From positions 357,616,001 through 357,680,000 of the forward strand of contig NW_027362762.1 in assembly GCF_046119375.1 (NCBI RefSeq): a stretch of DNA of 64,000 bases, in the 5' to 3' direction. The notes below the pieces were generated by a model. It saw only the letters and a program-made list of their open reading frames with translations. It did no database searches and was not told the DNA's origin. Positions 1 to 46,909 of this stretch are shown here, piece by piece; positions within the stretch are counted from its first letter, which is position 1; the number at the start of each line of letters is the position of its first letter. Origin of the DNA: Phyllobates terribilis. Its lineage: Eukaryota. A program made the translations under genes and the position numbers.

Positions 1-859
1 GCGGTGTTCGAGCCGTTCGGCGAACACGAACAATTTGAGAAAAATTCGGCTGTTCGAGGTTATGTTCGATAACTGTTCGTGCACCAAAATCATAACTGGA
101 TTTTTTCTCAGTAATGATGAAAATTAATGTTAATACGCAGTTTGAGTGTACAGCGGGGTGGGGGGAGGGGCAGGGGATGGATCTCTGCAGGAACAATGAA
201 GATCTCCATTTTTTTTTCTCTTTCCCGCATTTGCAGTGGGGAGGTGCAATCTGTCAGCCTATCAGCAGCGCACACACGGAGCGAAGTGCTTTTTTTCACA
301 GAAGCAAGGGCATGTGTCATTGGCAGTGTATGTCACATGTCCTTGCCCTATAAGACCAAGCCATTTTCCCCGTCGCCACCATTTTCTCACTGCTGCAGCT
401 GCGTGTTAGACGGCACCGCTGTTGCTGTGTGCGCTATACCTTGTTAATTTCAAGCCAATTTTCGCACAAATCTACAGATAGCTTGGGAGTAGGGAATAGT
501 TGTGATTGCAGTCCTTTTAAGGACTAGGTTACAGCATTTCCTACGACTTTTATCAGGCAGGTCTGTGCTCTTAAATAGATAGATTGTGGGAGTAAAGACT
601 AATTGTAATTGGAGTCCTTTTTAGGACTAGGTTACATCAGTTCCTATCAGTTTTTGCCAGGCAGGTCTGTGCCAGTGCTGTGCAAGTTTTTTTCACAGCA
701 TTTGGCTGAATCTAGCAAAGCTAATCCTTTTTGGCCTATTGCAGAGTGTGTTAGTCAGTGGAGTAGCCTATCTGTGTTGCAAGATATACCACCTGTGTAT
801 AGAATACCAATTTTTTTACTGCACCTAGTGAAGTAAAATCTTTTGGGCATAGCATCATT

Positions 860-2220
860 CTATTAGTCCATCTATACTGACCTCCATCAGGTTGCAAATT
901 GAATATAATTTTTTTCTGCATCTAGCTCTGAAAAAATATTGGGCTTCTAGCTGTGTGTGGGACTTGTTCTATTAATCCATCTATACAGACCTCCATCAGG
1001 TTGCAAACTGAATATATTTTTTTCTGCATCTACCTCTGAAAAAATATTGGGCTTCTAGCTGTGTGTGGGACTTGTTCTATTAATCCATCTATACAGACCT
1101 CCATCAGGTTGCAAACTGAATAAATTTTTTTCTGCATCTACCTCTGAAAAAATATTGGGCTTCTAGCTGTGTGTGGGACTTGTTGTATTAGTCCATCTAT
1201 ACTGACCTCCATCAGGTTGCAAACTGAATATATTTTTTTCTGCATCTACCTCTGAAAAAATATTGGGCTTCTAGCTGTGTGTGGGACTTGTTGTATTAGT
1301 CCATCTATACTGACCTCCATCAGGTTGCAAACTGAATATATTTTTTTCTGCATCTACCTCTGAAAAAATATTGGGCTTCTAGCTGTGTGTAGGACTTGTT
1401 CTATTAATCCATCTATACAGACCTCCATCAGGTTGCAAACTGAATATATTTTTTTCTGCATCTACCTCTGAAAAAATATTGGGCTTCCAGCTGTGTGTGG
1501 GACTTGTTCTATTAATCCATCTATACAGACCTCCATCAGGTTGCAAACTGAATATATTTTTTTCTGCATCTACCTCTGAAAAAATATTGGGCTTCTAGCT
1601 GTGTGTGGGACTTGTTCTATTAATCCATCTATACAGACCTCCATCAGGTTGCAAACTGAATATATTTTTTTCTGCATCTACCTCTGAAAAAATATTGGGC
1701 TTCTAGCTGTGTGTGGGACTTGTTCTATTAATCCATCTATACAGACCTCCATCAGGTTGCAAACTGAATATATTTTTTTCTGCATCTACCTCTGAAAAAA
1801 TATTGGGCTTCTAGCTGTGTGTGGGACTTGTTCTATTAATCCATCTATACAGACCTCCATCAGGTTGCAAACTGAATATATTTTTTTCTGCATCTACCTC
1901 TGAAAAAATATTGGGCTTCTAGCTGTGTGTGGGACTTGTTCTATTAATCCATCTATACAGACCTCCATCAGGTTGCAAACTGAATATATTTTTTTCTGCA
2001 TCTACCTCTGAAAAAATATTGGGCTTCTAGCTGTGTGTGGGACTTGTTGTATTAGTCCATCTATACTGACCTCCATCAGGTTGCAAACTGAATATATTTT
2101 TTTCTGCATCTACCTCTGAAAAAATATTGGGCTTCTAGCTGTGTGTGGGACTTGTTCTATTAATCCATCTATACAGACCTCCATCAGGTTGCAAATTGAA
2201 TATAATTTTTTTCTGCATCT
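860..2220 (+). repeat. 108-bp VNTR (~12.6 units) in the 5' region of hAT copy 1
   Basis: Unit CTATTA(A/G)TCCATCTATAC...GGGACTTGTT starts at 860, 969, 1077, 1185, 1293, 1401, 1509, 1617, 1725, 1833, 1941, 2049 and 2157 (last unit partial). Confidence 0.95.
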
Positions 2221-2337
2221 AACCCAGCCAATAGTTTTGGCCTAATACCACAGTTTGGCCACTCAGCTCTGCTCGGTTCCCATCCATTGTTTTTTTGTGC
2301 AAACAACTCCAGAGTTGTGAATTAGTTAACCACCAAA

Positions 2338-5300
2338 ATGAGTGGAAAAAGGCCTGCTGCTGGTGGAAAGGGGAATAGGCGTGTTGCGAAAGGGAAAAAA
2401 GGTTGTGTCCGTGGGGTAGGTGTTAAAGCAACAGTAACATCTGCAGAAGAAAGACCATCTTCCAGCCAAACTAAAATGTCTACTTCTTTTAGCGGACAGT
2501 GTGATAAGATCCCTTTCTTACGGCCACGCCAATCGCTACAAATTCCAGATGAGGCACAAAAACAGCAGGTGCTTCAACGGATATCAAGTGCTCCTTTAAG
2601 TGGGCTCTCCTCCACATCAACTTCAACATCACAAATACTCCAGTCCTCAAAGGTGTCACCCCAATCGCACTTGCTTCCTCACAGCTCCCAAATCTCCAGC
2701 TGCCCATCTGAGTATGAGGTAGAACAGATGGTTGAGTCTGCAGAGCTGTTTACTCATACTATAGCCTGGGAATCAGAGGTCGACTCCAGCGCTTCTGTGA
2801 ATCCAGACGAGGAAATGATCTGCACTGATGCCCAGAATCTTTATGAGTCGGATCCAGGACCAGACACAGAAGGTTCTGACCATAATGTAGACCCTCATTC
2901 CCAAACTGTAACTCCTGTTGGTGGAGACAATGAGGAAGATGATGATAAGACTCAAATACCTGATTGAAGCGACAACTTTAGTTTTTTGTCAGGGCAGGAA
3001 CAGGTTGGCTCTGAGGACGACGGGTGTGATAACGCACAGGGTGATGATGATGAGGTTGGAGATCCCACTTACTGTCAACCCACAGTCAGCCAAGAGATGA
3101 GGTCAGCAGAGGAGGTGGAGGAAAATGCTAGTGACGACGAGGTCAGGTTGCGCCTTCCTGGACAGAGACGTAGTACTGGAAGCACGTCAACAACTGCATC
3201 CTCAAACACAACTCTGCCTCTCACCACAAGTCGTGGTGGCTCTTCAGGTCGCATGGGTGCTAAGCCTTGCATAGCCTGGGCATTTTTTCAGATCGATAAA
3301 GATGACCCAACTCGTGTTATCTGTAACATTTGTCAGCAAAAGCTAAGTAGAGGCCAAAAAATACATAGTTTGAGTACTTCATGCATGAACCGGCACATGG
3401 ACATGAAGCATAAGTTGCAGTGGGAAGCTCAGTGTGCTACAATGCGGCCTAGCCGGCTGGGCCAACCACCGTCTGCCATATCTTGTGCATCCGCGGCCTC
3501 TTCATCCTCTGTGACTGGGGGGACAGCAGTCACACCTGTTTTGGGGCGCAGACCTGCCACCTCTTTACCCGCAACAGCCAGCGTGATTGGCAGGTCATCA
3601 TTTTCTTTGGAGGTGGTAACACCAGCTGGTGTTGAGCGCTGTCCAACATCGATAGCACCACCTTTGGATCAAGGCAACCTAACATGTCCGCCTGCATCTT
3701 CCTCACAGACCGGCAGTTTGCCGGGGACACCCTTATCAACCCCGTCTAAGCACAATAGCCAGCCCTCGGTCCCTCAGATGTGGACAAGTAAAAGACCATT
3801 TCCTCCTAACCATGAGAAAGCTAAGAGGTTGAATTTCACCATCTGCAAGCTCTTGGCTACAGAAATGCTGCCTTTCCGCCTGGTGGACACAGAGGATTTT
3901 CGAAACCTTATGTCCGTCGCAGTACCCCAGTACCAGATGCCCAGTCGGCACTACTTCTCAAAGAAAGGTGTGCCTGTGCTCCACCAGCATGTCGCACACA
4001 ACATCACCGCTTCTTTGAGAAACTCTGTGTGTGACAGGGTGCATTTCACCACAGACACTTGGACGAGTAGGCATGGACAGGGGCGTTACATGTCGCTGAC
4101 TGGGCACTGGGTAACTATGGTGACAGCAGGACAAGGGGCTGCTGTCCAAGTCTTGCCGTCCCCATGAGTTGTGCGTCAATCCTCTTTATGTCAAAGTTCC
4201 TCCACTGCTTCTGCCTCCTCAACCTCCTCTCGGTCTTCCACCTGCACCCAAAGCCTGTCTGGTCATGCCACAAGCTTTCTAACTGCGCAGAAGGGATCCT
4301 GCACACCTCCTTACTATGCTGGCAGTAGGGCTCAACGTCATCAGGCGGTTTTTACATTGAAATGTCTGGGAAATGTGAGTCACACAGCTGAGGAGTTGTG
4401 GTCAGCTCTGGAGAACCAATTTCATGAATGGTTGTCTCCACTGGACCTGAAACCAGGGAACGCCGTGTGCGACAATGCTGCAAACCTGGGTGCGGCCCTT
4501 CGCCGGGGCAATGTCACACACGTGCCTTGTATGGCTCACGTGTTGAACCTGGTTGTCCAGCAATTTTTAGCCCACTATCCCAGACTAGATGGCCTTCTGC
4601 AGAGGGCACGGTCGCTGTGTGCTCACTTCCGCCATTCGCATCCCGCAGCTCAGCGACTTACATCTCTACAGAAGTCGTTGGGCCTGCCACTTCACCGGCT
4701 AAAATGCGATGTGCCTACCCGGTGGAATTCAACTCTGCACATGTTGCAGCGACTGTGGCAGCACCGACAAGCCCTGGTGCAATACGTTCTGACGTATAGC
4801 CTGGGCCAACGAGATTCAGAGGTGGGGCAAATCACGCTGGAGGAGTGGTCTCAGATCAGGGACCTATGCACCCTTCTGCACAGTTTTGAAATGGAGACGA
4901 AGATGTTTAGTGCTGACGATGCCATTATCAGCATGACTATTCCGGTGATTTACATGCTGGAGCACATGTTAAACAGAATTCGGAGTCAGGTGGTGGCACA
5001 AGAGGAGGTGGAGGAAGTAGAGGAGGAGGAGTTGTACGCGGAAGGGCTAACATCTGCAAGGTCCAGACGGTCGGCAGCACCAAGGCGGCAGGCATGTGAG
5101 GGTGGGGGAGATGGTTTTACCAGGGCGCATGGTAGCAGCCAAACTAGTGAGGAAGGTGCAGGAGCCCAGGAAGAAGTGGAGGACGAACTGATGGAAGACT
5201 CATCAGATGAGGGAGACCTTGATCACATTTCTGTTGTGCGAGGTTGGGGGGAGAGGACAGAGGAAGGAAGCATGATTGTTACCTCGCCACCAACACAACA

Positions 5301-6039
5301 GGGTCTTGGTGCTCCTGGATGCGCAACACACATGAGTGCCTTCTTGCTGCACTACCTGCAACATGACCCTCGAATTGTGAGAATTAGAAATAATCCTGAC
5401 TACTGGGTTGCCACACTGTTAGATCCCCGGTACAAAAGTAAATTTGCAGAAATTATTCCTGCCATAGAAAGGGATGCACGCATGCAGGTGTATCAGCAGA
5501 GACTGTTGCAGAATCTTACATGTGCTTTTCCACAAAATACCAGTGGTGCACGTAGTGAATCTCACAGTTCCAACTTGCCAACCGTGGGACCGTCAAGTGT
5601 TCAGCACTCAAACCGTAACAGAACCACAGTATCTGCTGGTAACATCAATTTTGCGGAATCATTTCACCACTTTTTTAGCCCATCCTTTGCAAGGCCACAG
5701 GAGACAAGAAGTCTGACACATAGTCAACGCCTAGAGACGATGGTACAGGAGTATCTCCAAGTAAACATTGAAGCCACGACTGTGTCACTGGACCCTTGCT
5801 CTTTTTGGGCTTCCAATCTGGATAAATGGCCGGAGCTAGCCACTTACGCCTTGGAGATCTTGTCATGCCCCGCAGCCAGCGTTCTGTCTGAACGTGTGTT
5901 CAGCGCTGCTGGTGGTGTGCTGACAGATAAGCGCACGCGGCTCTCCACTGATAATGTAGACAGACTCACGTTCATAAAGATGAACAAATCATAGATCCGA
6001 AACGACTTTTCTACCCCTGTGTCATCCTGGGGAGAGTAA
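2338..6039 (+). pseudogene. hAT transposase (BED finger + DDE + C-terminal dimerisation domain), three in-frame stops
   Basis: Same frame as the copy 3 ORF, plus a 21-bp VKATVTS segment. Stops at 2965 (TGA, TGG in other copies), 4165 (TGA, CGA) and 5992 (TAG, TGG). Motifs ICNICQ..HMDMKH, FTTDTWTS, VCDNAAN, CMAHVLN, PTRWNS and SERVFSAAG are present. Confidence 0.95.
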
Positions 6040-6257
6040 AAGCTTGATGATTGGTTAAAATCACCCTACCAACCGTTTTAAGCTTTCAAAGTACTAATCA
6101 TGTTTATCTGTATCTTGGCTGGAAAATAATTTGGGCTTTGTAGCAGTGTGCAGCACTGATCCTATTAGGCCATCTATACTAAAGCTTCACCAGATTTAAA
6201 ATTAATAATAATTTTTAGCTGCATCTAGCCCGGAAAATAATTTTGGGTCTCCGAGAT

Positions 6258-6365
6258 GCGCAAGACACATAAGTGCCTTCATGCTGCATTACCTGCAGCA
6301 TGACCCTCATATTGTCAGAATTCGAAGTAATCATGACTACTGGGTTGCCACACTCTTAGATCCCC
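6258..6365 (+). pseudogene. Second, diverged hAT transposase remnant inside the element (continues at 7737..7805)
   Basis: 6258..6362 resembles 5321..5428 (FMLHYLQHDPHIVRIRSNHDYWVATLLDP vs FLLHYLQHDPRIVRIRNNPDYWVATLLDP); 7737..7805 resembles 5518..5588. Confidence 0.85.
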
Positions 6366-7735
6366 CAAACTTTTCGATCAACCTTTTCATTTTAATAAAG
6401 ACCAAAAAAATGGTCATTTTTGAAATTATAAGCATTAGCAGGTTGTTAGAAACTGAAATCAAACAGTTTTCAACTCAAAACTTTATTCTAGGTGATGTTA
6501 CATTTTCACATAGGACCCCTTGTTCGAAAGGAGCTTCTGAACTCTCTCGTCCATTGAATTTGTCAGGTTTTGGATGGTTTCTGCTTCAATTGTTTTGCAT
6601 GAGGACAGAATACCCTCCCAGAGCTGTTGCTTAGATGTGTACTGCCTCCCGCCATCATAGACACTCCTTTTAATGATGCTCCAAAGGTTCTGAATGGGGT
6701 ACAGGTCAGGGGAGCATGGGGGTCACACCATAAGTTTGTCCCCTTTTATGCCCATATCAGCCAGAGATGCAGATGTTTTATGTGCAGCATGAGATGGTGC
6801 ATTATCATGCAGAAAAATGATCTTGCTGTGAAATACACGGTTCTTCTTCTTGAACCATGGCAGGAAGTGCTGTTTGAGAAAATCCACATACATTATGGAG
6901 TTCATCTTTAGCGCCTTCAGGGATCCTAAAGGGGCCGACAATCTCTCTCCCCATGATTCCAGCCCAAAACATTACTCCACCTCCTCCTTGTTGGCGCTGT
7001 AGCCGTGTTTGCGTGGGGTGTCCATCAACCAGCCATCCTCCACTCCATCCATCTGGACCATCGAGCGCTGCACGGCACTCATCCGTGAACAAAACAGTTT
7101 TGAAATCAGTCTTCATGTAATGTTTGGCCCACTGGAGCCGTTTCTGCTTGTGTGAAGTGGATAGAGGAGGTCGACAGGATGGCGTATGCACAGCTGCAAA
7201 CCTCTGAAGGACCCTGCATCTTGTTGTTCGGGGGACGTTGGAGGCACAAGCAGCTTCAAAAACTTGTCTGCTGCTATGACAAGGCTTTTTTGCCGCTGCT
7301 CTTTCAACCTGACGTAATTGCCTGTAGGAAAGAGTCCTCAATTTGTCCTTATCAGCACGCACACGTGTGTACTGTGAATCAGCTACATACTTCTTGATTG
7401 CCAAGACACTTCATCCTGATCATCGCACAATGTTGATTGTAGTCATGCCTTGACCTAAACACTCCACAATTTGTTGCTTCTCAGCAGCCGACACATCCTT
7501 TTTCTTTCCCATTTTGGCAGAAAATGTAGGCTGCTTAATAATGTGAGACAGCCTTCTTAAGTAGTCTTGCCTTTCATTGGACACACCTGCCAAACTAATT
7601 AGCACAGGTGTCTGCAATTGCTTACAGTGATATAAAGAGCCCTGACACACATCACCATCAATGAGTTTAACTGACAAACAAATTCTTCCCTTATCACTCC
7701 TAAACACTTTTTGCATAATAATTTGGAACGCAGTG
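6366..7735 (-). mobile_element. Defective Tc1 cargo in hAT copy 1 (one TIR missing)
   Basis: TIR TTTGCATAATAATTTGGAACGCAGTG+TA at the right end. Transposase pieces MGKKKDVSAAEKQQIVECLG, VLFTDECR, FLHDNAPSHAA and PDLYPIQNLW (catalytic E replaced by Q), with stops and a frameshift. Confidence 0.9.
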
Positions 7736-7805
7736 TACATGTGCTTTTCCACAAAACACCAGTGGTTCACGTAGTGAATCTTACAGTTCTAACTTGCCAA
7801 CCGTG

Positions 7806-9630
7806 GTCTGTATGGAGTTGTTCAATAAAGGGCCCAAAATTAAGATAACATAGATGGGAGAGGTCTCTATGAATAGGAATTCCTAAGTATTTGATACCCT
7901 GTGAGGGCCAGGCAAAGGGAAAGTTGGACTGGATGGAATCCTATATGGATTTGGGGAGGGAGACATCGAGGGCCTCAGACTTCGCTGCATTGATTTTAAA
8001 ATTTGACCATGTAACAAAGTGATCTATTTCAGCCATAACAGCATGGATGGATATATTTAATTGAGTGATATATACTAGGACATCAGCAGCAAATAGAGAG
8101 CACTTGTACTCGGTGCCTCCCACCTCAATCCACCTAATATTGGGGTTATGCCGAATTGATGAGAGCAGGTGCTCCGTCACTAGGATGTATAAGAGAGGGG
8201 ACAGAGGACATCCCTGCCTTGTCCCATTGGTGATTGTGAAAGGTGATGAAAATGTTCTGATGCACCCCCTGGGCCTTGGGACACCCGGAGCCGGACCCTT
8301 TTTGGTGGATGCTGGTGGTTGTAGTCTTCGTGGCGGCGACCCGGTTCCGTGGCTCAGGGTGGTCAAACCAGTGGCGGAACTATTTATGTGGTTTTGATGT
8401 TTAAATGTCCGACTACGCCACCCGTGGATTGCAGTCAGAGTGAACCGCCGCTGCAGGGCAAACCGCTGAGGCTGGTGTTGTGGGTGCAGCAGAGCGTAGC
8501 ATAACTCCCCACGGGAGGAGTATAGCCTCAGGGCAGTGTATGCGGAGGATGGGGGTGATGGTGCAGGGCAGCAGCAGTAACGACACGGAGTCAGTGATGC
8601 AGTCCAGGGCCTTTACTCACAGTTCTTATTATCCAGACCACGTCTGCAGGTAACGGCTGCCCACGTCGTACTGTGCTCACCAGGTGAGGGGCTCAGACAA
8701 CTCCCAGATAACTTTGGAGCGCTTCACAGGACCCCCTTTGTGTGTCCTTTGTCTGGCCTTTCTTACCAACCCTTCTGTCCGGCTGCCTCGGGCCTCCTCT
8801 TGGTAAACTTGGCGCCAGTTTCCCTGACCCTATGTGGTGCCTTCCTAGCGGGTGTAGCGAGGGGCTGCGCCACATAAAATGTCACAGCCTCCGGTTTCTA
8901 GCTGAGGGTCGTTTCCTGCCTCCACTAGTTTCGGGGACCGGTCTCCCCCTTTGGCCTGACCCCTCCACGCAGGTGGATTCGGGCGTGCGGTGGTGACTCG
9001 CCCGTCCGCACCCCTGGGATCCCTTCATTCCTCGTTCCTGGAGCCTTCTCCGCTCCTCTTCCTTCCTTCTCCCTCTTCCAGGCCTGGGCCTCTGTTACTA
9101 GGCCCGCCTCCGGAGCAGAGCTCATGCAGAGCCCCTGCTTCCTGCCACTTCTGCTCAGACTTCTCTGTACTGAACTAAGATGGTGCCCACCTTTTATACT
9201 CCCTTCTCAATGCACCCAGGAACTGCTTCCTCCCTGCTCCTGCACTACAGGGTTCCCCTTCCTCAGTGTTCCCTCCCCCCACTCCAGCCAGGGACAGGGA
9301 CTGTCGTGCCCATCTCAGAGGCATATTGGTCGCCCTGCCCCACGGCAATGTGGTGTAATGCATGCAGGTGTCGGGTCCTGATCCACACTCCATCCTTACC
9401 TGAGAGTGAGATATCACACCTCTGGGTGAGGTGCAATACCTCTGTAGCAACCGAGCCCTCAGGGTGCTACAGTTCCATTTATCTTCAGCCTAGGTGACGT
9501 ATTGTGATACAGGGCCGTGATTTTGGCTATAAAAGGGTCCCCTAGACCCCTACCCGAAGCTTTTTAAGAGAATCATATATGGCGTGCCAGGAGACTCTAT
9601 GGAATGCTTTCTCAGCATCCAACGAGAGTA
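7806..9630 (-). mobile_element. L1-clade LINE reverse-transcriptase fragment, split by a solo LTR (hAT cargo)
   Basis: The minus strand reads LSLDAEKAFHRVSW..KINGT (9630..9472) and continues FSSPFTITNGTRQGCPLSPLL..CSLFA(A/D)DV (8257..7806). The frame rejoins exactly when the LTR and one GTTC are removed. Confidence 0.88.
8258..9471. mobile_element. Gypsy-type solo LTR inserted in the L1 fragment (hAT cargo)
   Basis: TG...CA ends with short inverted termini (GCACCC/GGGTGC) and a 4-bp TSD GTTC at 8254..8257 and 9472..9475. Confidence 0.85.
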
Positions 9631-9735
9631 TCTAATTACAAATTTTTAACTGCATCTAGCCCAGGAAATACTTTGTGCCTAGTAGCAGTGTCTGCTAGTC
9701 AGCGGATTATCCCGGCTGTTAAGCAAGCTACACCA

Positions 9736-10007
9736 CCTGTAGTTTAGACACTTAATTTTTTCAAAGGAAATGCTTCGGGACCATGGGATACTCAGTGAAG
9801 AGCATCAGGAGGCACCCCAAGGCATAGGGGCTGGGACTGGCAGTAGGATGCCTTGCGGTGGACAGCCGAGCTCGATCCTTATAAAAGCTTTTTAACTGCA
9901 GCAGCTTTAGTGGACGCTACTGGAGCTGGAATTACACGGCTGCTGGCATGAGACTTGCCCTCCAATAGATCCTTGTAAATGGATTTAAAGTGTATTCATT
10001 CAAATTA
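9736..10007 (-). pseudogene. Decayed 18S rRNA fragment (helix 18/530-loop region into V4) carried by hAT copy 1
   Basis: The reverse complement reads ...TGCCAGCAGCCGTGTAATTCCAGCTCCAGTAGCGTCCACTAAAGCTGCTGCAGTTAAAAAGC...GATGCTCTTCACTGAGTATCCC...TTTGAAAAAATTAAGTGTC, colinear with the universal 18S motifs GTGCCAGCAGCCGCGGTAATTCCAGCTCCAATAGCG, GCAGTTAAAAAGCTCG and TTTGAAAAAATTAGAGTGTTC (compared from memory, not by alignment software). Confidence 0.88.
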
Positions 10008-10488
10008 GAGAGACAATTTAAATTAAAAAGCTTAGAGCTGCCTCCACCACAGGGGGGCTCGCTCGACCCACCAGCGGACAGGCACCAGTATTGGGAGAGG
10101 GGGGCTGGCCATCAGGGTTCACCGCGGCTCTGGCACAAACCCGGTGACACGGAGGTGGCACGGGCAGGAGCGGACTGGCCGTGTCGGCTTCTCACTTTTT
10201 GGATTTTAGAAGGGCATGACATGCCTATATCTGTGTCTCCCCCTCCTTTTACTCCTCCACCTCTTTTATTTTCGCATGACTATATGTACTTGTCACTTTT
10301 CCATGTGTTAGTTATGTCTTCTGAGCAGTTTGTCAGCTTTTGGACACCTTTGAAGGTGTTTTCTATGTGTTTCTATGTGTTTTTGTTTGCCTGCCATTGG
10401 TTTTAACGGTGTTCGAACAGTTCGGCGAACACACGGGTGTTCGACGAACCGAACCGAACTCGAACACTACGGGGGTGGCTCAACACTA

Positions 10489-16491: not shown

Positions 16492-16516
16492 TGTGTGTGT
16501 GCCTGATAAATATATA

Positions 16517-18150: not shown

Positions 18151-18172
18151 TATATATATATATATATATATA

Positions 18173-28251: not shown

Positions 28252-28368
28252 TTTGGTGGTTAACTAATTCACAACTCTGGAGTTGTTTGCACAAAAAAAC
28301 AATGGATGGTAACCGAGCAGAGCTGAGTGGCCAAACTGTGGTATTAGGCCAAAACTATTGGCTGGGTT

Positions 28369-28982: not shown

Positions 28983-29949
28983 AATGATGCTATGCCCAAA
29001 AGATTTTACTTCACTAGGTGCAGTAAAAAAATTGGTATTCTATACACAGGTGGTATATCTTGCAACACAGATAGGCTACTCCACTGACTAACACACTCTG
29101 CAATAGGCCAAAAAGGATTAGCTTTGCTAGATTCAGCCAAATGCTGTGAAAAAAACTTGCACAGCACTGGCACAGACCTGCCTGGCAAAAACTGATAGGA
29201 ACTGATGTAACCTAGTCCTGAAAAGGACTCCAATTACAATTAGTCTTTACTCCCACAATCTATCTATTTAAGAGCACAGACCTGCTTGATAAAAGTCGTA
29301 GGAAATGCTGTAACCTAGTCCTTAAAAGGACTGCAATCACAACTATTCCCTACTCCCAAGCTATCTGTATATTTGTGCGAAAATTGGCTTGAAATTAACA
29401 AGGTATAGCGCACACAGCAACAGCGGTGCCGTCTAACACGCAGCTGCAGCAGTGAGAAAATGGTGGCGACGGGGAAAATGGCTTGGTCTTATAGGGCAAG
29501 GACATGTGACATACACTGCCAATCACACATGCCCTTGCTTGTGTGAAAAAAAGCACTTCGCTCCGTGTGTGCGCTGCTGATAGGCTGACAGATTGCACCT
29601 CCCCACTGCAAATGCGGGAAAGAGAAAAAAAAATGGAGATCTTCATTGTTCCTGCAGAGATCCATCCCCTGCCCCTCCCCCCGCCCCGCTGTACACTCAA
29701 ACTGCGTATTAACATTAATTTTCATCATTACTGAGAAAAAATCCAGTTATGATTTTGGTGCACGAACAGTTATCGAACATAACCTCGAACAGCCGAATTT
29801 TTCTCAAATTGTTCGTGTTCGCCGACCGGCTCGAACACCGCCCAAAACAGCTCGAATTTGAGATTGGCGAACAGTTCGAGTAGAACAACGCTCATCTCTA
29901 ATGGCTACACCACTACCTCTTACAGCACAAAAATATTAGCTTTTTATTT

Positions 29950-34543: not shown

Positions 34544-35461
34544 TAGAGATGAGCGTTGTTCTACTCGAACTGTTCGCCAATCTCAAATTCGAGCTGTTTT
34601 GGGCGGTGTTCGAGCCGGTCGGCGAACACGAACAATTTGAGAAAAATTCGGCTGTTCGAGGTTATGTTCGATAACTGTTCGTGCACCAAAATCATAACTG
34701 GATTTTTTCTCAGTAATGATGAAAATTAATGTTAATACGCAGTTTGAGTGTACAGCGGGGTGGGGGGAGGGGCAGGGGATGGATCTCTGCAGGAACAATG
34801 AAGATCTCCATTTTTTTTTCTCTTTCCCGCATTTACAGTGGGGAGGTGCAATCTGTCAGCCTATCAGCAGCGCACACACGGAGCGAAGTGCTTTTTTTCA
34901 CACAAGCAAGGGCATGTGTGATTGGCAGTGTATGTCACATGTCCTTGCCCTATAAGACCAAGCCATTTTCCCCGTCGCCACCATTTTCTCACTGCTGCAG
35001 CTGCGTGTTAGACGGCACCGCTGTTGCTGTGTGCGCTATACCTTGTTAATTTCAAGCCAATTTTCGCACAAATATACAGATAGCTTGGGAGTAGGGAATA
35101 GTTGTGATTGCAGTCCTTTTAAGGACTAGGTTACAGCATTTCCTACGACTTTTATCAGGCAGGTCTGTGCTCTTAAATAGATAGATTGTGGGAGTAAAGA
35201 CTAATTGTAATTGGAGTCCTTTTCAGGACTAGGTTACATCAGTTCCTATCAGTTTTTGCCAGGCAGGTCTGTGCCAGTGCTGTGCAAGTTTTTTTCACAG
35301 CATTTGGCTGAATCTAGCAAAGCTAATCCTTTTTGGCCTATTGCAGAGTGTGTTAGTCAGTGGAGTAGCCTATCTGTGTTGCAAGATATACCACCTGTGT
35401 ATAGAATACCAATTTTTTTACTGCACCTAGTGAAGTAAAATCTTTTGGGCATAGCATCATT

Positions 35462-35745
35462 CTATTAGTCCATCTATACTGACCTCCATCAGGTTGCAAA
35501 CTGAATATAATTTTTTTCTGCATCTAGCTCTGAAAAAATATTTGGGCTTCTAGCGGTGTGTGGGACTTGGTCTATTAGTCCATCTATACTGACCTCCATC
35601 AGGTTGCAAATTAAAAATAATTTTTTTCTTCATTTATCTCTGAAAAAATATTTGGGCTTCTAGCAGCGTGTGGGACTTGTTCTATTAGTCCATCTATACT
35701 GACCTCCATCAGGTTGCAAATTAAAAATATTTTTTTCTGCATCTA
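35462..35745 (+). repeat. 110-bp VNTR (~2.6 units) in hAT copy 3
   Basis: Units start at 35462, 35572 and 35682. Confidence 0.92.
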
Positions 35746-35861
35746 GCCCAGCCAATAGTTTTGGCCTAATACCACAGTTTGGCCACTCAGCTCTGCTCGG
35801 TTACCATCCATTGTTTTTTTGTGCAAACAACTCCAGAGTTGTGAATTAGTTAACCACCAAA

Positions 35862-38800
35862 ATGAGTGGAAAAAGGCCTGCTGCTGGTGGAAAGGGGAAT
35901 AGGCGTGTTGGGAAGGGGAAAAAAGGTTGTGTCCGTGGGGTAGGTGCAGAAGAAAGACCATCTTCCAGCCAAACTAAAATGTCTACTTCTTTTAGCGGAC
36001 AATGTGATAAGATCCCTTTCTTACGGCCACGCCAATCGCTACAAATTCCAGATGAGGCACAAAAACAGCAGGTGCTTCAACGGATATCAAGTGCTCCTTT
36101 AAGTGGGCTCTCCTCCACATCAACTTCAACATCACAAATACTCCAGTCCTCAAAGGTGTCACCCAAATCGCACTTGCTTCCTCACAGCTCCCAAATCTCC
36201 AGCTGCCCGTCTGAGTATGAGGTAGAACAGATGGTTGAGTCTGCAAAGCTGTTTACTCATACTATAGCCTGGGAATCAGAGGTCGACTCCAGCGCTTCTG
36301 TGAATCCAGACGAGGAAATGATCTGCACTGATGCCCAGAATCTTTATGAGTCGGATCCAGGACCAGACGCAGAAGGTTCTGACCATAATGTAGACCCTCA
36401 TTCCCAAACTGTAACTCCTGTTGGTGGAGACAATGAGGAAGACGATGATAAGACTCAAATACCTGATTGGAGCGACAACTTTAGTTTTTTGTCAGGGCAG
36501 GAACAGGTTGGCTCTGAGGACGACGGGTGTGATAACGCACAGGGTGATGATGATGAGGTCGGAGATCCCACTTACTGTCAACCCACAGTCAGCCAAGAGA
36601 TGAGGTCAGCAGAGGAGGTGGAGGAAGATGCTAGTGACGACGAGGTCAGGTTGCGCCTTCCTGGACAGAGACATAGTACTGGAAGCACGTCAACAACTGC
36701 ATCCTCAAACACAACTCTGCCTCTCACCACAAGTCGTGGTGGCTCTTCAGGTCGCATGGGTGCTAAGCCTTGCATAGCCTGGGCATTTTTTCAGATCGAT
36801 AAAGATGACCCAACTCGTGTTATCTGTAACATTTGTCAGCAAAAGCTAAGTAGAGGCCAAAAAATACATAGTTTGAGTACTTCATGCATGAACCGGCACA
36901 TGGACATGAAGCATAAGTTGCAGTGGGAAGCTCAGTGTGCTACAATGCGGCCTAGCCGGCCGGGCCAATCACCGTCTGCCATATCTTGTGCATCCGCGGC
37001 CTCTTCATCCTCTGTGACTGGGGGGACAGCAGTCACACCTGTTTTGGGGCGCAGACCTGCCACCTCTTTACCCGCAACAGCCAGCGTGATTGGCAGGTCA
37101 TCATTTTCTTTGGAGGTGGTAACACCAGCTGGTGTTGAGCGCTGTCCGACATCGATAGCACCACCTTTGGATCAAGGCAACCTAACATGTCCGCCTGCAT
37201 CTTCCTCACAGACCGGCAGTTTGCCGGGGACACCCTTATCAACCCCGTCTAAGCACAATATCCAGCCCTCGGTCCCTCAGATGTGGACAAGTAAAAGACC
37301 ATTTCCTCCTAGCCATGAGAAAGCTAAGAGGTTGAATTTCACCATCTGCAAGCTCTTGGCTACAGAAATGCTGCCTTTCCGCCTGGTGGACACAGAGGAT
37401 TTTCGAGACCTTATGTCCGTCGCAGTGCCCCAGTACCAGATGCCCAGTCGGCACTACTTCTCAAAGAAAGGTGTGCCTGCGCTCCACCAGCATGTCGCAC
37501 ACAACATCACCGCTTCTTTGAGAAACTCTGTGTGTGACAGGGTGCATTTCACCACAGACACTTGGACGAGTAGGCATGGACAGGGGCGTTACATGTCGCT
37601 GACTGGGCACTGGGTAACTATGGTGACAGCAGGACAAGGGGCTGCTGTCCAAGTCTTGCCGTCCCCACGAGTTGTGCGTCAATCCTCTTTATGTCAAAGT
37701 TCCTCCACTGCTTCTGCCTCCTCAACCTCCTCTCGGTCTTCCACCTGCACCCAAAGCCTGTCTGGTCATGCCACAAGCTTTCTAGCTGCGCAGAAGGGAT
37801 CCTGCACACCTCCTTACTATGCTGGCAGTAGGGCTCAACGTCATCAGGCGGTTTTTACATTGAAATGTCTGGGAAATGTGAGTCACACAGCTGAGGAGTT
37901 GTGGTCAGCTCTGGAGAACCAATTTCATGAATGGTTGTCTCCACTGGACCTGAAACCAGGGAAGGCCGTGTGCGACAATGCTGCAAACCTGGGTGTGGCC
38001 CTTCGCCGGGGCAATGTCACACACGTGCCTTGTATGGCTCACGTGTTGAACCTGGTTGTCCAGCAATTTTTAGCCCACTATCCCAGACTAGATGGCCTTC
38101 TGCAGAGGGCACGGTCGCTGTGTGCTCACTTCCGCCGTTCGCATCCCGCAGCTCAGCGACTTACATCTCTACAGAAGTCGTTGGGCCTGCCACTTCACCG
38201 GCTAAAATGCGATGTGCCTACCCAGTGGAATTCAACTCTGCACATGTTGCAGCGACTGTGGCAGCACCGACAAGCCCTGGTGCAATACGTTCTGACGTAT
38301 AGCCTGGGCCAACGAGATTCAGAGGTGGGGCAAATCACGCTGGAGGAGTGGTCTCAGATCAGGAACCTATGCACCCTTCTGCACAGTTTTGAAATGGCGA
38401 CGAAGATGTTTAGTGCTGACGATGCCATTATCAGCATGACTATTCCGGTGATTTACATGCTGGAGCACATGTTAAACAGAATTCGGAGTCAGGTGGTGGC
38501 ACAAGAGGAGGTGGAGGAAGTAGAGGAGGAGGAGTTGTATGCGGAAGGGCTAACATCTGCAAGGTCCAGACGGTCGGCAGCACCAAGGCGGCAGGCATGT
38601 GAGGGTGGGGGAGATGGTTTTACCAGGGCGCATGGTAGCAGCCAAACTAGTGAGGAAGGTGCAGGAGCCCAGGAAGAAGTGGAGGACGAACTGATGGAAG
38701 ACTCATCAGATGAGGGAGACCTTGATCACATTTCTGTTGTGCGAGGTTGGGGGGAGAGGACAGAGGAAGGAAGCATGATTGTTACCTCGCCACCAACACA

Positions 38801-39542
38801 ACAGGGACTTGGTGCTCCTGGATGCGCAACACACATGAGTGCCTTCTTGCTGCACTACCTGCAACATGACCCTCGAATTGTGAGAATTAGAAATAATCCT
38901 GACTACTGGGTTGCCACACTGTTAGATCCCCGGTACAAAAGTAAATTTGCAGAAATTATTCCTGCCATAGAAAGGGATGCACGCATGCAGGAGTATCAGC
39001 AGAGACTGTTGCAGAATCTTACATGTGCTTTTCCACAAAATACCAGTGGTGCACGTAGTGAATCTCACAATTCCAACTTGCCAACCGTGGGACCGTCAAG
39101 TGTTCAGCACTCAAACCGTAACAGAACCACAGTATCTGCTGGTAACATCAATTTTGCGGAATCATTTCACCACTTTTTTAGCCCATCCTTTGCAAGGCCA
39201 CAGGAGACAAGAAGTCTGACACATAGTCAACGCCTAGAGACGATGGTACAGGAGTATCTCCAAGTAAACATTGAAGCCACGACTGTGTCACTGGACCCTT
39301 GCTCTTTTTGGGCTTCCAATCTGGATAAATGGCCGGAGCTAGCCACTTACGCCTTGGAGATCTTGTCATGCCCCGCAGCCAGCGTTCTGTCTGAACGTGT
39401 GTTCAGCGCTGCTGGTGGTGTGCTGACAGATAAGCGCACGCGGCTCTCCACTGATAATGTAGACAGACTCACGTTCATAAAGATGAACAAATCATGGATC
39501 CGAAACGACTTTTCTACCCCTGTGTCATCCTGGGGAGAGTAA
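35862..39542 (+). CDS. hAT-superfamily transposase, 1226 aa (BED zinc finger, DDE core, C-terminal dimerisation domain)
   Basis: Uninterrupted ORF with AWAFF..CNIC..H..KH, TTDTW, CDNAAN, CMAH, PTQWNS, ATLLDPRYK and SERVFSAAG..KRTRLS; lies between hAT TIRs. Confidence 0.95.
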   Translation: MSGKRPAAGGKGNRRVGKGKKGCVRGVGAEERPSSSQTKMSTSFSGQCDKIPFLRPRQSLQIPDEAQKQQVLQRISSAPLSGLSSTSTSTSQILQSSKVSPKSHLLPHSSQISSCPSEYEVEQMVESAKLFTHTIAWESEVDSSASVNPDEEMICTDAQNLYESDPGPDAEGSDHNVDPHSQTVTPVGGDNEEDDDKTQIPDWSDNFSFLSGQEQVGSEDDGCDNAQGDDDEVGDPTYCQPTVSQEMRSAEEVEEDASDDEVRLRLPGQRHSTGSTSTTASSNTTLPLTTSRGGSSGRMGAKPCIAWAFFQIDKDDPTRVICNICQQKLSRGQKIHSLSTSCMNRHMDMKHKLQWEAQCATMRPSRPGQSPSAISCASAASSSSVTGGTAVTPVLGRRPATSLPATASVIGRSSFSLEVVTPAGVERCPTSIAPPLDQGNLTCPPASSSQTGSLPGTPLSTPSKHNIQPSVPQMWTSKRPFPPSHEKAKRLNFTICKLLATEMLPFRLVDTEDFRDLMSVAVPQYQMPSRHYFSKKGVPALHQHVAHNITASLRNSVCDRVHFTTDTWTSRHGQGRYMSLTGHWVTMVTAGQGAAVQVLPSPRVVRQSSLCQSSSTASASSTSSRSSTCTQSLSGHATSFLAAQKGSCTPPYYAGSRAQRHQAVFTLKCLGNVSHTAEELWSALENQFHEWLSPLDLKPGKAVCDNAANLGVALRRGNVTHVPCMAHVLNLVVQQFLAHYPRLDGLLQRARSLCAHFRRSHPAAQRLTSLQKSLGLPLHRLKCDVPTQWNSTLHMLQRLWQHRQALVQYVLTYSLGQRDSEVGQITLEEWSQIRNLCTLLHSFEMATKMFSADDAIISMTIPVIYMLEHMLNRIRSQVVAQEEVEEVEEEELYAEGLTSARSRRSAAPRRQACEGGGDGFTRAHGSSQTSEEGAGAQEEVEDELMEDSSDEGDLDHISVVRGWGERTEEGSMIVTSPPTQQGLGAPGCATHMSAFLLHYLQHDPRIVRIRNNPDYWVATLLDPRYKSKFAEIIPAIERDARMQEYQQRLLQNLTCAFPQNTSGARSESHNSNLPTVGPSSVQHSNRNRTTVSAGNINFAESFHHFFSPSFARPQETRSLTHSQRLETMVQEYLQVNIEATTVSLDPCSFWASNLDKWPELATYALEILSCPAASVLSERVFSAAGGVLTDKRTRLSTDNVDRLTFIKMNKSWIRNDFSTPVSSWGE

Positions 39543-39868
39543 AAGCTTGATGATTGGTTAAAATCACCCTACCAACCGTTTTAAGCTTTCAAATTACTAA
39601 TCATGTTTATCTGTATCTTGACTGGAAAATAATTTGGGCTTTGTAGCAGTGTGCAGCACTGATCCTATTAGGCCATCTATAATAAGCTTCACCAGATTTA
39701 AAATTAAAAATAATTTTTAGCTGCATCTTGCCCGGAAAATAATTTTGGGGCTCCGAGATGCGCAAGACACATAAGTGCCTTCTTGCTGCACTACCTGCAG
39801 CATGACCCTCATATTGTCAGAATTCGAAGTAATCATGACTACTGGGTTGCCACACTCTTAGATCCCCC

Positions 39869-41241
39869 AAACTTTTCGATCAACCTTTTCATTTTAATAA
39901 AGACCAAAAAAATGGTCATTTTTGAAATTATAAGCATTAGCAGGTTGTTAGAAACTGAAATCAAACAGTTTTCAACTCAAAACTTTATTCTAGGTGATGT
40001 TACATTTTCACATAGGACCCCTTGTTCGAAAGGAGCTTCTGAACTCTCTCGTCCATTGAATTTGTCAGGTTTTGGATGGTTTCTGCTTCAATTGTTTTGC
40101 ATGAGGACAGAATACCCTCCCAGAGCTGTTGCTTAGATGTGAACTGCCTCCCGCCATCATAGACACTCCTTTTAATGATGCTCCAAAGGTTCTGAATGGG
40201 GTACAGGTCAGGGGAGCATGGGGGTCACACCATAAGTTTGTCCCCTTTTATGCCCATATCAGCCAGAGATGCAGATGTTTTATGTGCAGCATGAGATGGT
40301 GCATTATCATGCAGAAAAATGATCTTGCTGTGAAATACACGGTTCTTCTTCTTGAACCATGGCAGGAAGTGCTGTTTGAGAAAATCCACATACATTATGG
40401 AGTTCATCTTTAGCGCCTTCAGGGATCCTAAAGGGGCCGACAATCTCTCTCCCCATGATTCCAGCCCAAAACATTACTCCACCTCCTCCTTGTTGGCGCT
40501 GTAGCCGTGTTTGCGTGGGGTGTCCATCAACCAGCCATCCTCCACTCCATTCATCTGGACCATCGAGCGCTGCACGGCACTCATCCGTGAACAAAACAGT
40601 TTTGAAATCAGTCTTCATGTAATGTTTGGCCCACTGGAGCCGTTTCTGCTTGTGTGAAGTGGATAGAGGAGGTCGACAGGATGGCGTATGCACAGCTGCA
40701 AACCTCTGAAGGACCCTGCATCTTGTTGTTCGGGGGACGTTGGAGGCACAAGCAGCTTCAAAAACTTGTCTGCTGCTATGACAAGGCTTTTTTGCCGCTG
40801 CTCTTTCAACCTGACGTAATTGCCTGTAGGAAAGAGTCCTCAATTTGCCCTTATCAGCACGCACACGTGTGTACTGTGAATCAGCTACATACTTCTTGAT
40901 TGCCAAGACACTTCATCCTGATCATCGCACAATGTTGATTGTAGTCATGCCTTGACCTAAACACTCCACAATTTGTTGCTTCTCAGCAGCCGACACATCC
41001 TTTTTCTTTCCCATTTTGGCAGAAAATGTAGGCTGCTTAATAATGTGAGAGAGCCTTCTTAAGTAGTCTTGCCTTTCATTGGACACACCTGCCAAACTAA
41101 TTAGCACAGGTGTCTGCAATTGCTTACAGTGATATAAAGAGCCCTGACACACATCACCATCAATGAGTTTAACTGACAAACAAACAAATTCTTCCCTTAT
41201 CACTCCTAAACACTTTTTGCATAATAATTTGGAACGCGGTG
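39869..41241 (-). mobile_element. Defective Tc1 cargo in hAT copy 3
   Basis: Same structure as 6366..7735, including the micro-inversion at 40899..40933. Confidence 0.9.
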
Positions 41242-41763
41242 TACATGTGCTTTTCCACAAAACACCAGTGGTTCACGTAGTGAATCTTACAGTTCTAACT
41301 TGCCAACCGTGGTCTGTATGGAATTGTTCAATAAAGGGCCCAAAATTAAGATAACATAGATGGGAGAGGTCTCTATGAATAGGAATTCCTAAGTATTTGA
41401 TACCCTGTGAGGGCCAGGCAAAGGGAAAGTTGGACTGGATGGAATCCTATATGGATTTAGGGAGGGAGACATCGAGGGCCTCAGACTTCGCTGCATTGAT
41501 TTTAAAATTTTACCATGTAACAAAGTGATCTATTTCAGCCATAACAGCAGGGATGGATATATGTGATTGAGTGATATATACTAGGACATCATCAGCAAAT
41601 AGAGAGCACTTGTACTCGGTGCCTCCCACCTCAATCCACCTAATATTGGGGTTATGGCGAATTGATGAGAGCAGGTGCTCCGTCACTAGGATGTATAAGA
41701 GAGGGGACAGAGGACATCCCTGCCTTGTCCCATTGGTGATTGTGAAAGGTGATGAAAATGTTC

Positions 41764-42974
41764 TGACGCACCCCCTGGGCCTTGGGACACCCGGAGCCGG
41801 ACACTTTTTGGTGGATGCTGGTGGTTGTAGTCTTCGTGGCGGCGATCCGGTTCCGTGGCTCAGGGCGGTCAAACCAGTGGCGGAACTATTTATGTGGTTT
41901 TGATGTTTAAATGTCCGACTACGCCACCCGTGGATTGCGGTCAGAGTGAACCGCCGCTACAGGGCAGACCGCTAAGGCTGGTGTTGTGGGTGCAGCAGAG
42001 CGTAGCATAACTCCCCACGGGAGGAGTATAGCCTCAGGGCAGTGTATGCGGAGGATGGGGGTGATGGTGCAGGGCAGCAGCAGTAACGACACGGAGTCAG
42101 TGATGCAGTTCAGGGCCTTTACTCACAGTTCTTATTATCCAGACCACGTCTGCAGGTAACGGCTGCCCACGTCGTACTGTGCTCACCAGGTGAGGGGCTC
42201 AGACAACTCCCAGATAACTTTGGAGCGCTTCACAGGACCCCCTTTGTGTGTCCTTTGTCTGGCCTTTCTTACCAACACTTCTGTCCGGCTGCCTCGGGCC
42301 TCCTCTTGGTAAACTTGGCGCCAGTTTCCCTGACCCTATGTGGTGCCTTCCTAGCGGGTGGAGCAAGGGGCTGCGCCACATAAAATGTCAGAGCCTCCGG
42401 TTTCTAGCTGAGGGTCGTTTCCTGCCTCCACTAGTTCGGGGACCGGTCTCCCCCTTTGGCCTGACCCCTCCACGCAGGTGGATTCGGGCGTGCGGTGGCG
42501 ACTCGCCCGTCCACACCCCTGGGATCCCTTCATTCCTCGTTCCTGGAGCCTTCTCCGCTCCTCTTCCTTCCTTCTCCCTCTTGCAGGCCTGGGCCTCTGT
42601 TACTAGGCCCGCCTCCGGAGCAGAGCTCATGCAGAGCCCCTGCTCCCTGCCACTTCTGCTCAGACTTCTCTGCACTGAACTAAGATGGTGCCCACCTTTT
42701 ATACTCCCTTCTCAATGCACCCAGGAACTGCTTCCTCCCTGCTCCTGCACTGCAGGGTTCCCCTTCCTCAGTGTTCCCTCCCCCCACTCCAGCCAGGGAC
42801 AGGGACTGTCGTGCCCATCTCAGGGGCATATTGGTCGCCCTGCCCCACGGCAATGTGGTGTAATGCATGCAGGTGTCGGGTCCTGATCCACACTCCATCC
42901 TTATCTGAGAGTGAGATATCACACCTCTGGGTGAGGTGCAATACATCTGTAGCAACCGAGCCCTCGGTGCTACA
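41764..42974. mobile_element. Gypsy solo LTR within the L1 fragment (hAT copy 3 cargo)
   Basis: TGACGCACC...GGTGCTACA with TSD GTTC; L1 RT flanks (FADD motif in ORF 41510..41872). Confidence 0.85.
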
Positions 42975-43238
42975 GTTCCATTTATCTTCAGCCTAGGTGA
43001 CGTATTGTGATACAGGGCCGTGATTTTGGCTATAAAAGGGTCCCCTAGACCCCTACCCCAAGCTTTTTAAGAGAATCATATATGGCGTGCCAGGAGACTC
43101 TATGGAATGCTTTCTCAGCATCCAACGAGAGTATCTACTTACAAATTTTTAACTGCATCTAGCCCAGGAAATACTTTGTGCCTAGTAGCAGTGTCTGCTA
43201 GTCAGCGGATTATCCCGGCTGTTAAGCAAGCTACACCA

Positions 43239-43511
43239 CCTGTAGTTTGGACACTTAATTTTTTCAAAGGAAATGCTTCGGGACCACGGGATACTTAGTG
43301 AAGAGCATCAGGAGGCACCCCAAGGCATAGGGGCTGGGACTGGCACTAGGATGCCTTGCGGTGGACAGCCGAGCTCGATCCTTATAAAAGCTTTTTAACT
43401 GCAGCAGCTTTAGTGGACGCTACTGGAGCTGGAATTACGCGGCTGCTGGCATGAGACTTGCCCTCCAATAGATCCTTGTAAATGGATTTAAAGTGTATTC
43501 ATTCAAATTAG
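43239..43511 (-). pseudogene. 18S rRNA fragment in hAT copy 3
   Basis: CTTTTTAACTGCAGCAGCTTTAGTGGACGCTACTGGAGCTGGAATTACGCGGCTGCTGGCATGAGACTTGCCCTCCAAT is the antisense of the 18S helix-18 region. Confidence 0.88.
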
Positions 43512-44429
43512 AGGGACAATTTAAATTAAAAAGCTTAGAGCTGCCTCCACCACAGGGGGGCTCTCTCGACCCACCAGCGGACAGGCACCAGTATTGGGAG
43601 AGGGGGGCTGGCCGTCAGGGTTCACCGCGGCTCTGGCACAAACCCGGCGACACGGAGGTGGCACGGGCAGGAGCGGACTGGCCGTCTCGGCTTCTCACTT
43701 TTTGGATTTTAGAAGGGCATGACATGCCTATATCTGTGTCTCCCCCTCCTTTTACTCCTCCACCTCTTTTCTTTTCGCATGACTATATGTACTTGTCACT
43801 TTTCCATGTGTTAGTTGTGTCTTCTGAGCAGTTTGTCAGCTTTTGGACACCTTTGAAGGTGTTTTCTATGTGTTTCTATGTGTTTTTGTTTGCCTGCCAT
43901 TGTTTTTAACGGTGTTCGAAGGTGTTCGACGAACAGTTCGACGAACAGTTCGGTGAACACACGGGTGTTCGACGAACCGAACCGAACTCGAACACTACGG
44001 GGGTGGCTCAACACTACTTGCTAATTGCACTTAAACATACGGGCTGATGCAGCTTTATATGAAAATCTCAATTATAATTGCTGGACCTGAAATAACAAGC
44101 ACTTTTCACCTACTGTGTCCCCCCTATTCCCTTGAGAGCAGGGACCTCACTCTTAATGTAACTTTTTAAACTGTCTTACCTTGTATTGAATTTATTGTCT
44201 GTACATGTCACCACTTAATTGTAAAGTGCTGCGGAATATGTTGGCGCTATATAAATAAAATTATTATTAATTAACCCTTTAGCAAAGTCCTCCATTGAGC
44301 AGTAGAATATCTTAGAAGTACTGGATTACACCTCCACCCATCCTGAAACAATACCTCTTCTAAAACAATTGCATTAGAACAGATAACATTTATGTTCATC
44401 TGTGTATCACCCACAAACTGATGGAGTAT

Positions 44430-46906: not shown

Positions 46907-46909
46907 GCT

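Follow-up and report, generated by a model that had tools for sequence, protein, structure and literature searches.

The window analysed here is a 64,000-bp stretch of the Phyllobates terribilis genome (RefSeq assembly GCF_046119375.1, contig NW_027362762.1, positions 357,616,001 to 357,680,000, forward strand), in which three colinear copies of one cargo-laden hAT DNA transposon were located by self-comparison of the window. Coordinates are window positions; the copies, with their target site duplications (TSDs) and the number of units in a variable number tandem repeat (VNTR), are as follows.

1..10488 (+), copy 1: 12.6 VNTR units; two stops in the transposase; TSD ATGCTGAT; within a Tc1 transposase gene
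20198..29900 (-), copy 2: 5.6 VNTR units; frameshifted transposase; 18S piece minus 98 bp; TSD ATGGCTAC
34544..44016 (+), copy 3: 2.6 VNTR units; TSD CTTGCTAA; within the 3′ region of a long interspersed nuclear element (LINE)

Pairwise divergence among the three copies was 1.48%, 1.25%, and 0.46%. The TSDs of copies 2 and 3 are perfect, 8 bp long, and unlike each other. Copy 1 runs off the left edge (<1-10488); in the upstream stretch its true start was found 59 bp before the window, immediately preceded by ATGCTGAT, the left TSD forecast by the first-pass annotation of this DNA, and the Tc1 transposase frame interrupted by copy 1 resumes across the TSD, in agreement with the target named there. 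Copy 3 had been described as splitting an L2 tail; a LINE 3′ region with a short TAT-type tail was confirmed, which we take to be L2, although no library match to L2 was obtained. The internal architecture, earlier described as identical, differs among the copies in VNTR length and in the 98-bp deletion of copy 2, and Rfam matches the 18S rRNA piece in copies 1 and 3 alone. An unbroken transposase frame of 1226 aa is present only in copy 3 of the three. Copies 2 and 3 share the substitution R792Q in the RW motif (window 38224 and its equivalent in copy 2), which is absent from the other sampled copies and is consistent with local hopping from one common parent.

The layout of copy 3, including its terminal inverted repeats (TIRs), reverse transcriptase (RT) fragments, and solo long terminal repeat (LTR), is as follows.

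34544..35460 (+), left end: imperfect TIR of 11 bp; GTTCG/CGAAC eight times within the outermost 134 bp; duplication of ~103 bp
35461..35747 (+), VNTR: 108-110-bp units, 2.6 here and ~50 in another locus
35862..39542 (+), hAT transposase: single frame, 1226 aa; zf-BED at 310-356, dimerisation domain at 1137-1211
39584..39744 (+), degenerate VNTR units that follow the stop codon: the acquired block's left edge
39745..39867 (+), transposase remnant A: 89% to 38809-38931
39868..41241 (-), dead Tc1: transposase frame of full extent, though broken; TA and one TIR retained
41242..41312 (+), transposase remnant B: 93% to 39020-39090
41313..41763 (-), L1-type RT fragment, part 1: Pfam RVT_1
41764..42974 (-), solo LTR, 1211 bp: TG..CA ends; GTTC target duplication
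42975..43143 (-), L1-type RT fragment, part 2
43389..43516 (-), 18S rRNA fragment: Rfam, about model positions 500-620
43517..44016 (+), right end: GTTCG/CGAAC eleven times within the outermost 103 bp, followed by the TIR

The VNTR is the chief source of length variation, and other copies insert into it. The Tc1, recognised by a Pfam match to HTH_Tnp_Tc3_2 (below the cut-off) and by frame translation, has lost its other end together with the adjoining remnant sequence; the strand of the solo LTR was set solely by likeness to related LTRs. The cargo list of the first-pass annotation held when Tc1, L1-type RT, solo LTR, and 18S rRNA were checked by Pfam, Rfam, frame translation, and element ends. 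Cargo makes up ~3.4 kb of the 9.5 kb of a copy, or about a third. Of the five cargo items, four are nested fossils of transposable elements (TEs), one of them hAT sequence, and no item has an intact coding frame, so that the element spreads debris, not working elements or genes; the only non-TE cargo is the ~130-bp 18S piece. The earlier statement that it ferries class I, class II, and rDNA pieces around the genome thus stands for dispersed debris and not for anything functional. The Tc1 segment (window 39945-41241) showed a contig depth about tenfold above that of the transposase in run X17 of a further organism (organism F), so the source family of the Tc1 is separately abundant there.

The TIRs are 11 bp long with 9 of 11 positions matching, and the three lineages A, B, and C described below have the same ends. 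Nineteen of 24 occurrences of GTTCG/CGAAC fall within the outer 134 bp (left) and 103 bp (right); by analogy with the subterminal repeats of Hermes, as given in passages of PMC10368747, they are candidate BED-binding sites. Identical 8-bp TSDs were found at 24 of the 28 elements with both ends seen (window, 3/3; two further sets of loci, 2/2 and 12/14; LTR-less copies, 3/4; subfamily C, 4/5).

Buster-type hATs insert at a central TA, which occurred in none of 42 flanks (0/42). In 37 of these 42, position 2 was T and position 7 was A, and the same pattern, nTnnnnAn, was fitted by 13 of 20 further flanks. In the parts of two papers that treat it (PMC8961557, PMC10368747), nTnnnnAn is the consensus target of Ac-type hATs.

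The protein of copy 3 was matched by Pfam zf-BED and Dimer_Tnp_hAT and by Hermes (E 1e-18). Its catalytic and conserved residues are D570, D709, C728xxH731, W793, and E1182 (numbering of P0001, with 4 residues before the Met), invariant or nearly so across 12 homologues; the RW motif is present in most copies and reads QW in copies 2 and 3. Among 14 homologue matches, every named one is a frog protein (33-45% identity). The element thus has 8-bp TSDs, short TIRs, the BED, DDE, CxxH, RW, and dimerisation features, and clustered subterminal repeats of the hAT superfamily, and by its nTnnnnAn sites and its Hermes similarity is best classed as an Ac-type hAT.

Full transposase frames, all with the catalytic motifs kept, were found in 3 of 20 unselected copies and in 11 of 19 near-identical copies (14/39 together), which by rough extrapolation from the sampled copies suggests thousands of intact-frame copies genome-wide. 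The ratio of nonsynonymous to synonymous changes (pN/pS) was 0.40 for changes common to B and C relative to the young copies (p=3e-4 against singletons) and 0.44 for LTR-less versus young copies (p=0.06), and 0.87 for singletons. Since replacements are under-represented among the lineage's changes, while private ones are near neutral, the laden master copies encoded their own working enzyme; judged by these substitution patterns, the lineage is autonomous and its transposase under purifying selection.

Genome-wide counts were made with exact sequence patterns across the 10.57-Gb assembly, and reversed-pattern controls gave 0. Exact ends numbered 47,805 (left) and 59,438 (right), and the junctions of the 18S piece and of the right side of the L1 fragment 62,906 and 62,959, respectively; one L1/LTR pattern, which spans a polymorphic site and fits only 6 of 22 sampled copies, gave 29,767 matches. 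Across the initial 28.8 Mb of C1, 73 left ends were set against 100 right ends; a partner within 30 kb existed for 61 of the 73 (median 11,134 bp), 40 of these pairs spanning 9-12.5 kb and 1 under 8 kb. The family was estimated at ~50,000-60,000 copies and 0.45-0.70 Gb, or 4.3-6.6% of the assembly; its scale, about 5% of the genome, was underestimated by the first-pass annotation. Exact-end pairs cover 2.7% of the paired C1 region, where right ends occur at 3.5 per Mb against a genome mean of 5.6 per Mb.

At 16 of 20 unselected loci (the first right ends on C1) all 8 cargo junctions were present; the other four comprised two loci of lineage B and two broken by nested insertions. With the 24 of 28 exact TSDs, unrelated flanks, and ~63,000 cargo junctions, these loci bear out the earlier proposal that the hAT moves with its cargo as one unit by transposition. 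A class of 15-17-kb elements was considered as an additional amplified cargo stage and ruled out: of eight examined, seven are A copies with extra inserts of ~5 kb at differing positions, and one belongs to lineage B.

Three successive architectures were distinguished by their cargo. Subfamily C (L108-L125), found via locus L083, yielded 1,663 candidates, of which 40 were scored and 12 fetched. Its transposase is 89-92% identical and its TIRs are the same, and it is without the remnant, Tc1, L1, and LTR; the 18S piece is present wherever the region is uninterrupted and lies nearer the Rfam model (92.6 versus 64 bits), VNTRs flank the gene on both sides, and an insert of ~810 bp near the right end, with an RT-like translation, is presumably DIRS/Ngaro-like RT scrap. 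Subfamily C elements are 6.7-9.1 kb long, with exact TSDs in 4 of 5 and a full frame in 0 of 12. In LTR-less A, the 18S piece is joined by the remnant-Tc1-L1 block and the DIRS scrap is absent. Eleven of the first 100 L1-right junctions showed an empty LTR site, the other ~89 being LTR-bearing; all 11 LTR-less loci were fetched and were 93-96% identical to copy 3, with Tc1, remnant, and L1 present, no full frames, and exact TSDs in 3 of 4 complete elements. Young A, to which most copies belong, has the solo LTR added to the LTR-less architecture. Contigs of organism F (a diverged run, ~96%) likewise contained the C junction as well as the LTR site in its empty state.

Lineage B was represented by three loci (L060 with L061 at G000:C1:14235036-14250616, L045, and L031), one of them complete at 15.6 kb with an exact TSD. 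It has the same hAT ends, a VNTR of ~50 units, tyrosine-recombinase scrap, a different fixed solo LTR, and a transposase that is inverted, lacks its start, and is dead. A transposase tree of 48 rows was ladder-like, with B followed by LTR-less, older LTR-bearing, and younger LTR-bearing copies. Divergence was 0.31% for young copies (to their own majority), 0.90% for unselected copies, and 3.0% pairwise for LTR-less copies, corresponding to ages of ~1, 3, and 5 million years at a rate borrowed from a passage on Xenopus (PMC9250109).

Cargo was therefore loaded stepwise, from C to LTR-less A to young A, each of which transposed with its own TSDs; the 18S fragment is the oldest cargo and the solo LTR, for which empty sites exist, the most recent. 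The earlier inference that the cargo was assembled first and the whole then amplified is not upheld: each of the three architectures in turn spread with TSDs of its own, so that loading and bursts alternated. A tailless retropseudogene flanked by an 8-bp TSD, of the kind described in part of PMC5322556, was considered as the origin of the 18S piece and dropped because the apparent direct repeat of the young copies is absent in subfamily C, in which the right edge of the 18S piece is a local tandem duplication.

Insertion into copies continues. Private LTR elements and solo LTRs still nest in them, and copies lie inside other copies of the family at L045, L046, L030, L115, and L123, twice at the same 8-bp VNTR site. 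On their right sides, the copies L033 and L034 stop at one shared position in a Tc1-like repeat, the flanks differing slightly, and the TSDs of L033 mismatch; the shared site may be a hotspot or may reflect recombination between copies.

The reading that we favour, and hold to be very probable, is that an autonomous Ac-type hAT expanded through a succession of master lineages with its cargo hitchhiking. In hAT transposition, as in Ac and Hermes, the transposase needs two ends only, excises everything between them, and reinserts it elsewhere, and copies are gained by gap repair or by transposition during replication. By extension from Ac and Hermes, the frog transposase would act on the ends, the whole interval between them would be cut out and pasted, and copy number would rise by either of these routes. 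Because only the ends and the enzyme matter, DNA landing 3′ of the stop codon would be harmless and hitchhike; each master-copy bottleneck would fix whatever cargo that master held, as neutral baggage.

A pattern for a Tc1-less precursor gave 397 matches, and the candidate was rejected when 15 proved to be 13 derived deletions and 2 transposase variants. In all 13 deletions, remnant B had recombined with the gene, and the catalytic C-terminus was lost together with the Tc1. Because this commonest deletion route also removes the catalytic E, the cargo would be hard to shed.

Several observations weigh against the succession of laden masters or blur it. Four of the 28 TSD pairs lacked an exact match, and the tree backbone is mostly weak (LTR-less group support 81/75). 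Neither an intermediate that has the remnant or L1 and lacks Tc1 (0 of 15 loci) nor an 18S-less precursor (0 of 11 matches) turned up, so that two steps went unseen. The unselected sample was confined to the start of one chromosome, and exact patterns miss old copies; conversely, because two near-identical locus pairs share flanks, some counts would be duplications or haplotype copies. Evidence of transcription amounted to a single read in the 12.7 million records of the sole raw RNA run, whose organism may not be the host. About 0.8 of the hAT words were present in organisms B-E and almost none in the RNA of organism C; since contamination could explain an abundant repeat, these occurrences were not taken as support for host range or horizontal transfer.

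The alternative with the best standing concerns a single step of this succession, for which it has roughly even chances: the remnant-Tc1-L1 block may have been acquired at one stroke when gap repair switched template, at VNTR homology, to a decayed sister copy at another locus, in the manner of Pack-TIRs. The block is bounded by VNTR-like units in place of the 320-bp spacer of C, Tc1 and L1 are truncated already at their first appearance, and the missing intermediates (15 loci) would be expected. The remnant is also slightly closer to the B and C transposases (11-16 differences in 192) than to those of A (11-18 in 192), but these distances are only 1-4 sites apart, old intermediates would evade exact patterns, and private LTR and solo-LTR insertions are common now, so that sequential nesting is demonstrably available.

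Selection for the cargo would instead have the LTR or other pieces aid the element (as promoter or enhancer, poly(A) signal, chromatin, or end spacing), so that laden lineages replaced earlier ones. The LTR-bearing lineage is indeed the youngest (0.31% from its majority) and accounts for ~89 of the first 100 junctions; but cargo is conserved no better than the transposase (pairwise 1.1-1.8% versus 1.0%), subfamily C spread with different junk to 1,663 candidates, and a master-copy bottleneck accounts for fixation without benefit, which together leave this explanation improbable.

Still less likely, to the point that we give it little weight, is that the laden copies are non-autonomous passengers moved in trans by a shorter, cargo-free hAT. 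R792Q in copies 2 and 3, the broken genes of copies 1 and 2, and the spread of lineage B (3 loci) without a usable gene would suit it. Set against these are the full frames with all catalytic motifs in 14 of 39 laden copies, purifying selection along the laden lineage, the single end pair in 61 under 8 kb, and the absence of a full frame from all 12 cargo-poor C copies. Segmental duplication or assembly artefact is scarcely credible and was rejected for the family as a whole, since the sign of it named by the first-pass annotation, similarity beyond the TIRs, was seen in just two locus pairs with shared flanks (L012/L016 and L019/L020, among 19 near-identical loci; these may be segmental duplicates or haplotype copies and somewhat inflate the counts), whereas in nearly all loci similarity stops at the TIRs, TSDs vary from locus to locus, the left TSD forecast for copy 1 was found, and contigs of other runs cross the cargo junctions.

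In a Pack element, internal host sequence replaces the working transposase. The label 'pack-hAT' given earlier fits the multicopy spread with distinct TSDs after capture, and does not fit the carrier, which by its full frames and purifying selection is autonomous, or the cargo, which is mostly dead TE debris. Pack-TIRs of animals are described, in passages of Tan et al. 2021 (PMC8277862), as carrying host gene fragments and being multicopy in 4 of 281 reference-genome cases; the frog example Pack-hAT-N8_XT, with 3 copies, is likewise a TIR element with foreign sequence that passed through several transposition rounds with distinct TSDs, whereas the present family has ~60,000 copies.

Hermes, Ac, hobo, and Tol2, as members of the Ac family, likewise combine a BED, DDE, and dimerisation transposase with nTnnnnAn 8-bp TSDs, imperfect short TIRs, and subterminal repeats (passages of PMC10368747 and PMC8961557). 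In contrast to the hAT length of 2.5-5 kb quoted in the latter, the frog element measures 9.5-11 kb, its transposase is twice the length of that of Hermes, and it exists in tens of thousands of near-full-length copies, with short derivatives almost absent among exact end pairs. Among anurans, hAT-10 and the frog 'ZBED4-like' and 'ZBED6-like' proteins are likewise BED-hATs, the named homologues being those at 33-45% identity. In the passages on hAT-10 (PMC9250109), it has a 1033-aa BED transposase, long non-coding parts, hundreds of copies in amphibians, and a 14-bp TIR, and neither such cargo nor such copy number is mentioned there. The present element has an imperfect 11-bp TIR and may belong to the hAT-10 lineage; the X. 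tropicalis match P0014 (33% in the alignment) is not labelled hAT-10. In the newt genome, hATs form 15% of repeats, mostly as MITEs (miniature inverted-repeat transposable elements), according to a passage of PMC11872487. The frog family is built from known mechanisms, and it was set against published descriptions, so Repbase or Dfam entries could already cover it.

The 18S cargo is itself a site of insertion. Two-ORF LINEs of L1/Tx1 type break the 18S piece at the equivalent of window 43434/43435 in six distinct loci (L073 with L044, L079, L112, L114, L120, and L049), L044 being the other end of the L073 insertion. Both junctions were seen in three loci, the 3′ junction only in two, and the 5′ junction only in one. 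All five breaks among 62 18S left-flank matches were at this site (one locus counted twice), as were all four C-terminal LINE matches, at loci that had been chosen around hAT copies. The LINEs have an apurinic/apyrimidinic endonuclease (APE), an RT, and a C-terminal zinc motif, and their homologues carry PF03372, PF00078, and PF13966, by which Tx1 and L1 are not separable; the LINEs may belong to the Tx1 clade. With 83-95% likeness among the LINE C-termini, and hosts drawn from at least two subfamilies, several of the events were independent, possibly from an 18S-targeting lineage to which the 18S piece would have supplied tens of thousands of dispersed targets.

Four nucleotides from the LINE site, 1 base is lost in 19 of 19 near-identical copies and in 13 of 15 unselected copies; C copies mostly retain it, and the long form is kept in 4 of 4 LINE insertions with a visible 5′ junction. 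One might speculate that the 1-bp deletion of the young lineage is an escape from the LINE, a pattern confounded by age. A wider idea, that the 18S scrap (~63,000 mobile decoys outnumbering the rDNA) became a niche for an undescribed 18S-specific Tx1-type LINE from which the young hAT escaped in a three-way chase, is put forward tentatively and is rather doubtful; if true, rDNA, DNA transposon, and LINE would have pursued one another, within a few million years, inside one family that builds about 5% of a 10-Gb frog genome.

Targeting of Tx1D by Tx1L in Xenopus and of Mariner-N4_AMi by Tx1-Mar, reported in passages of PMC6719617 and PMC4494074, likewise places a Tx1-clade LINE at a fixed site within a DNA transposon; here the target is the piece of 18S rRNA that a hAT carries. 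Those passages list Tx1D, U2, U5, 5S, microsatellites, Mariner, and LTR elements as Tx1 targets; 18S is not among them. A limited literature search, outside which lay supplements and Repbase/Dfam, found no paper on the present hAT family or on an 18S-targeting Tx1, and the fixed-site insertions hint at a possibly unreported lineage.

An anuran survey (part of PMC12822217) states that hATs enlarge genomes by many small insertions and that retrotransposons give the bulk; in contrast, one cut-and-paste family of ~10-kb near-full-length copies here contributes roughly half a gigabase, and because about a third of each copy is debris, master-copy junk has grown to the order of 0.2 Gb. Repeat annotation will misread ~60,000 'Tc1', 'L1', 'LTR', and '18S' matches as bursts of those families, although they are hAT cargo, which biases both rDNA counts and repeat landscapes. 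With subfamilies that are dated and nested, the master-lineage dynamics of a DNA transposon become testable, and this natural hAT, by which 10-16 kb are moved routinely, is a candidate vector for large cargo.

Other elements were observed in the window as follows.

16506..19024, Tc1-like remnants at 16819-17658 (-) and 18272-19024 (+), and a 279-bp inverted repeat pair (16506-16784 / 17883-18161)
44424..45857, 232-bp inverted repeat pair (44703-44934 / 45317-45548) inside tandem repeats of 70-71 bp, probably from the insertion of a MITE into a minisatellite
46891..50922 (+), broken LTR retrotransposon encoding a SCAN domain and a zinc knuckle, its integrase lying upstream of the RT, a domain order that we take to be Gmr1-like
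62507..63571 (+), open Tc1 frame of 354 codons with a Sleeping Beauty-type helix-turn-helix and DDE_3

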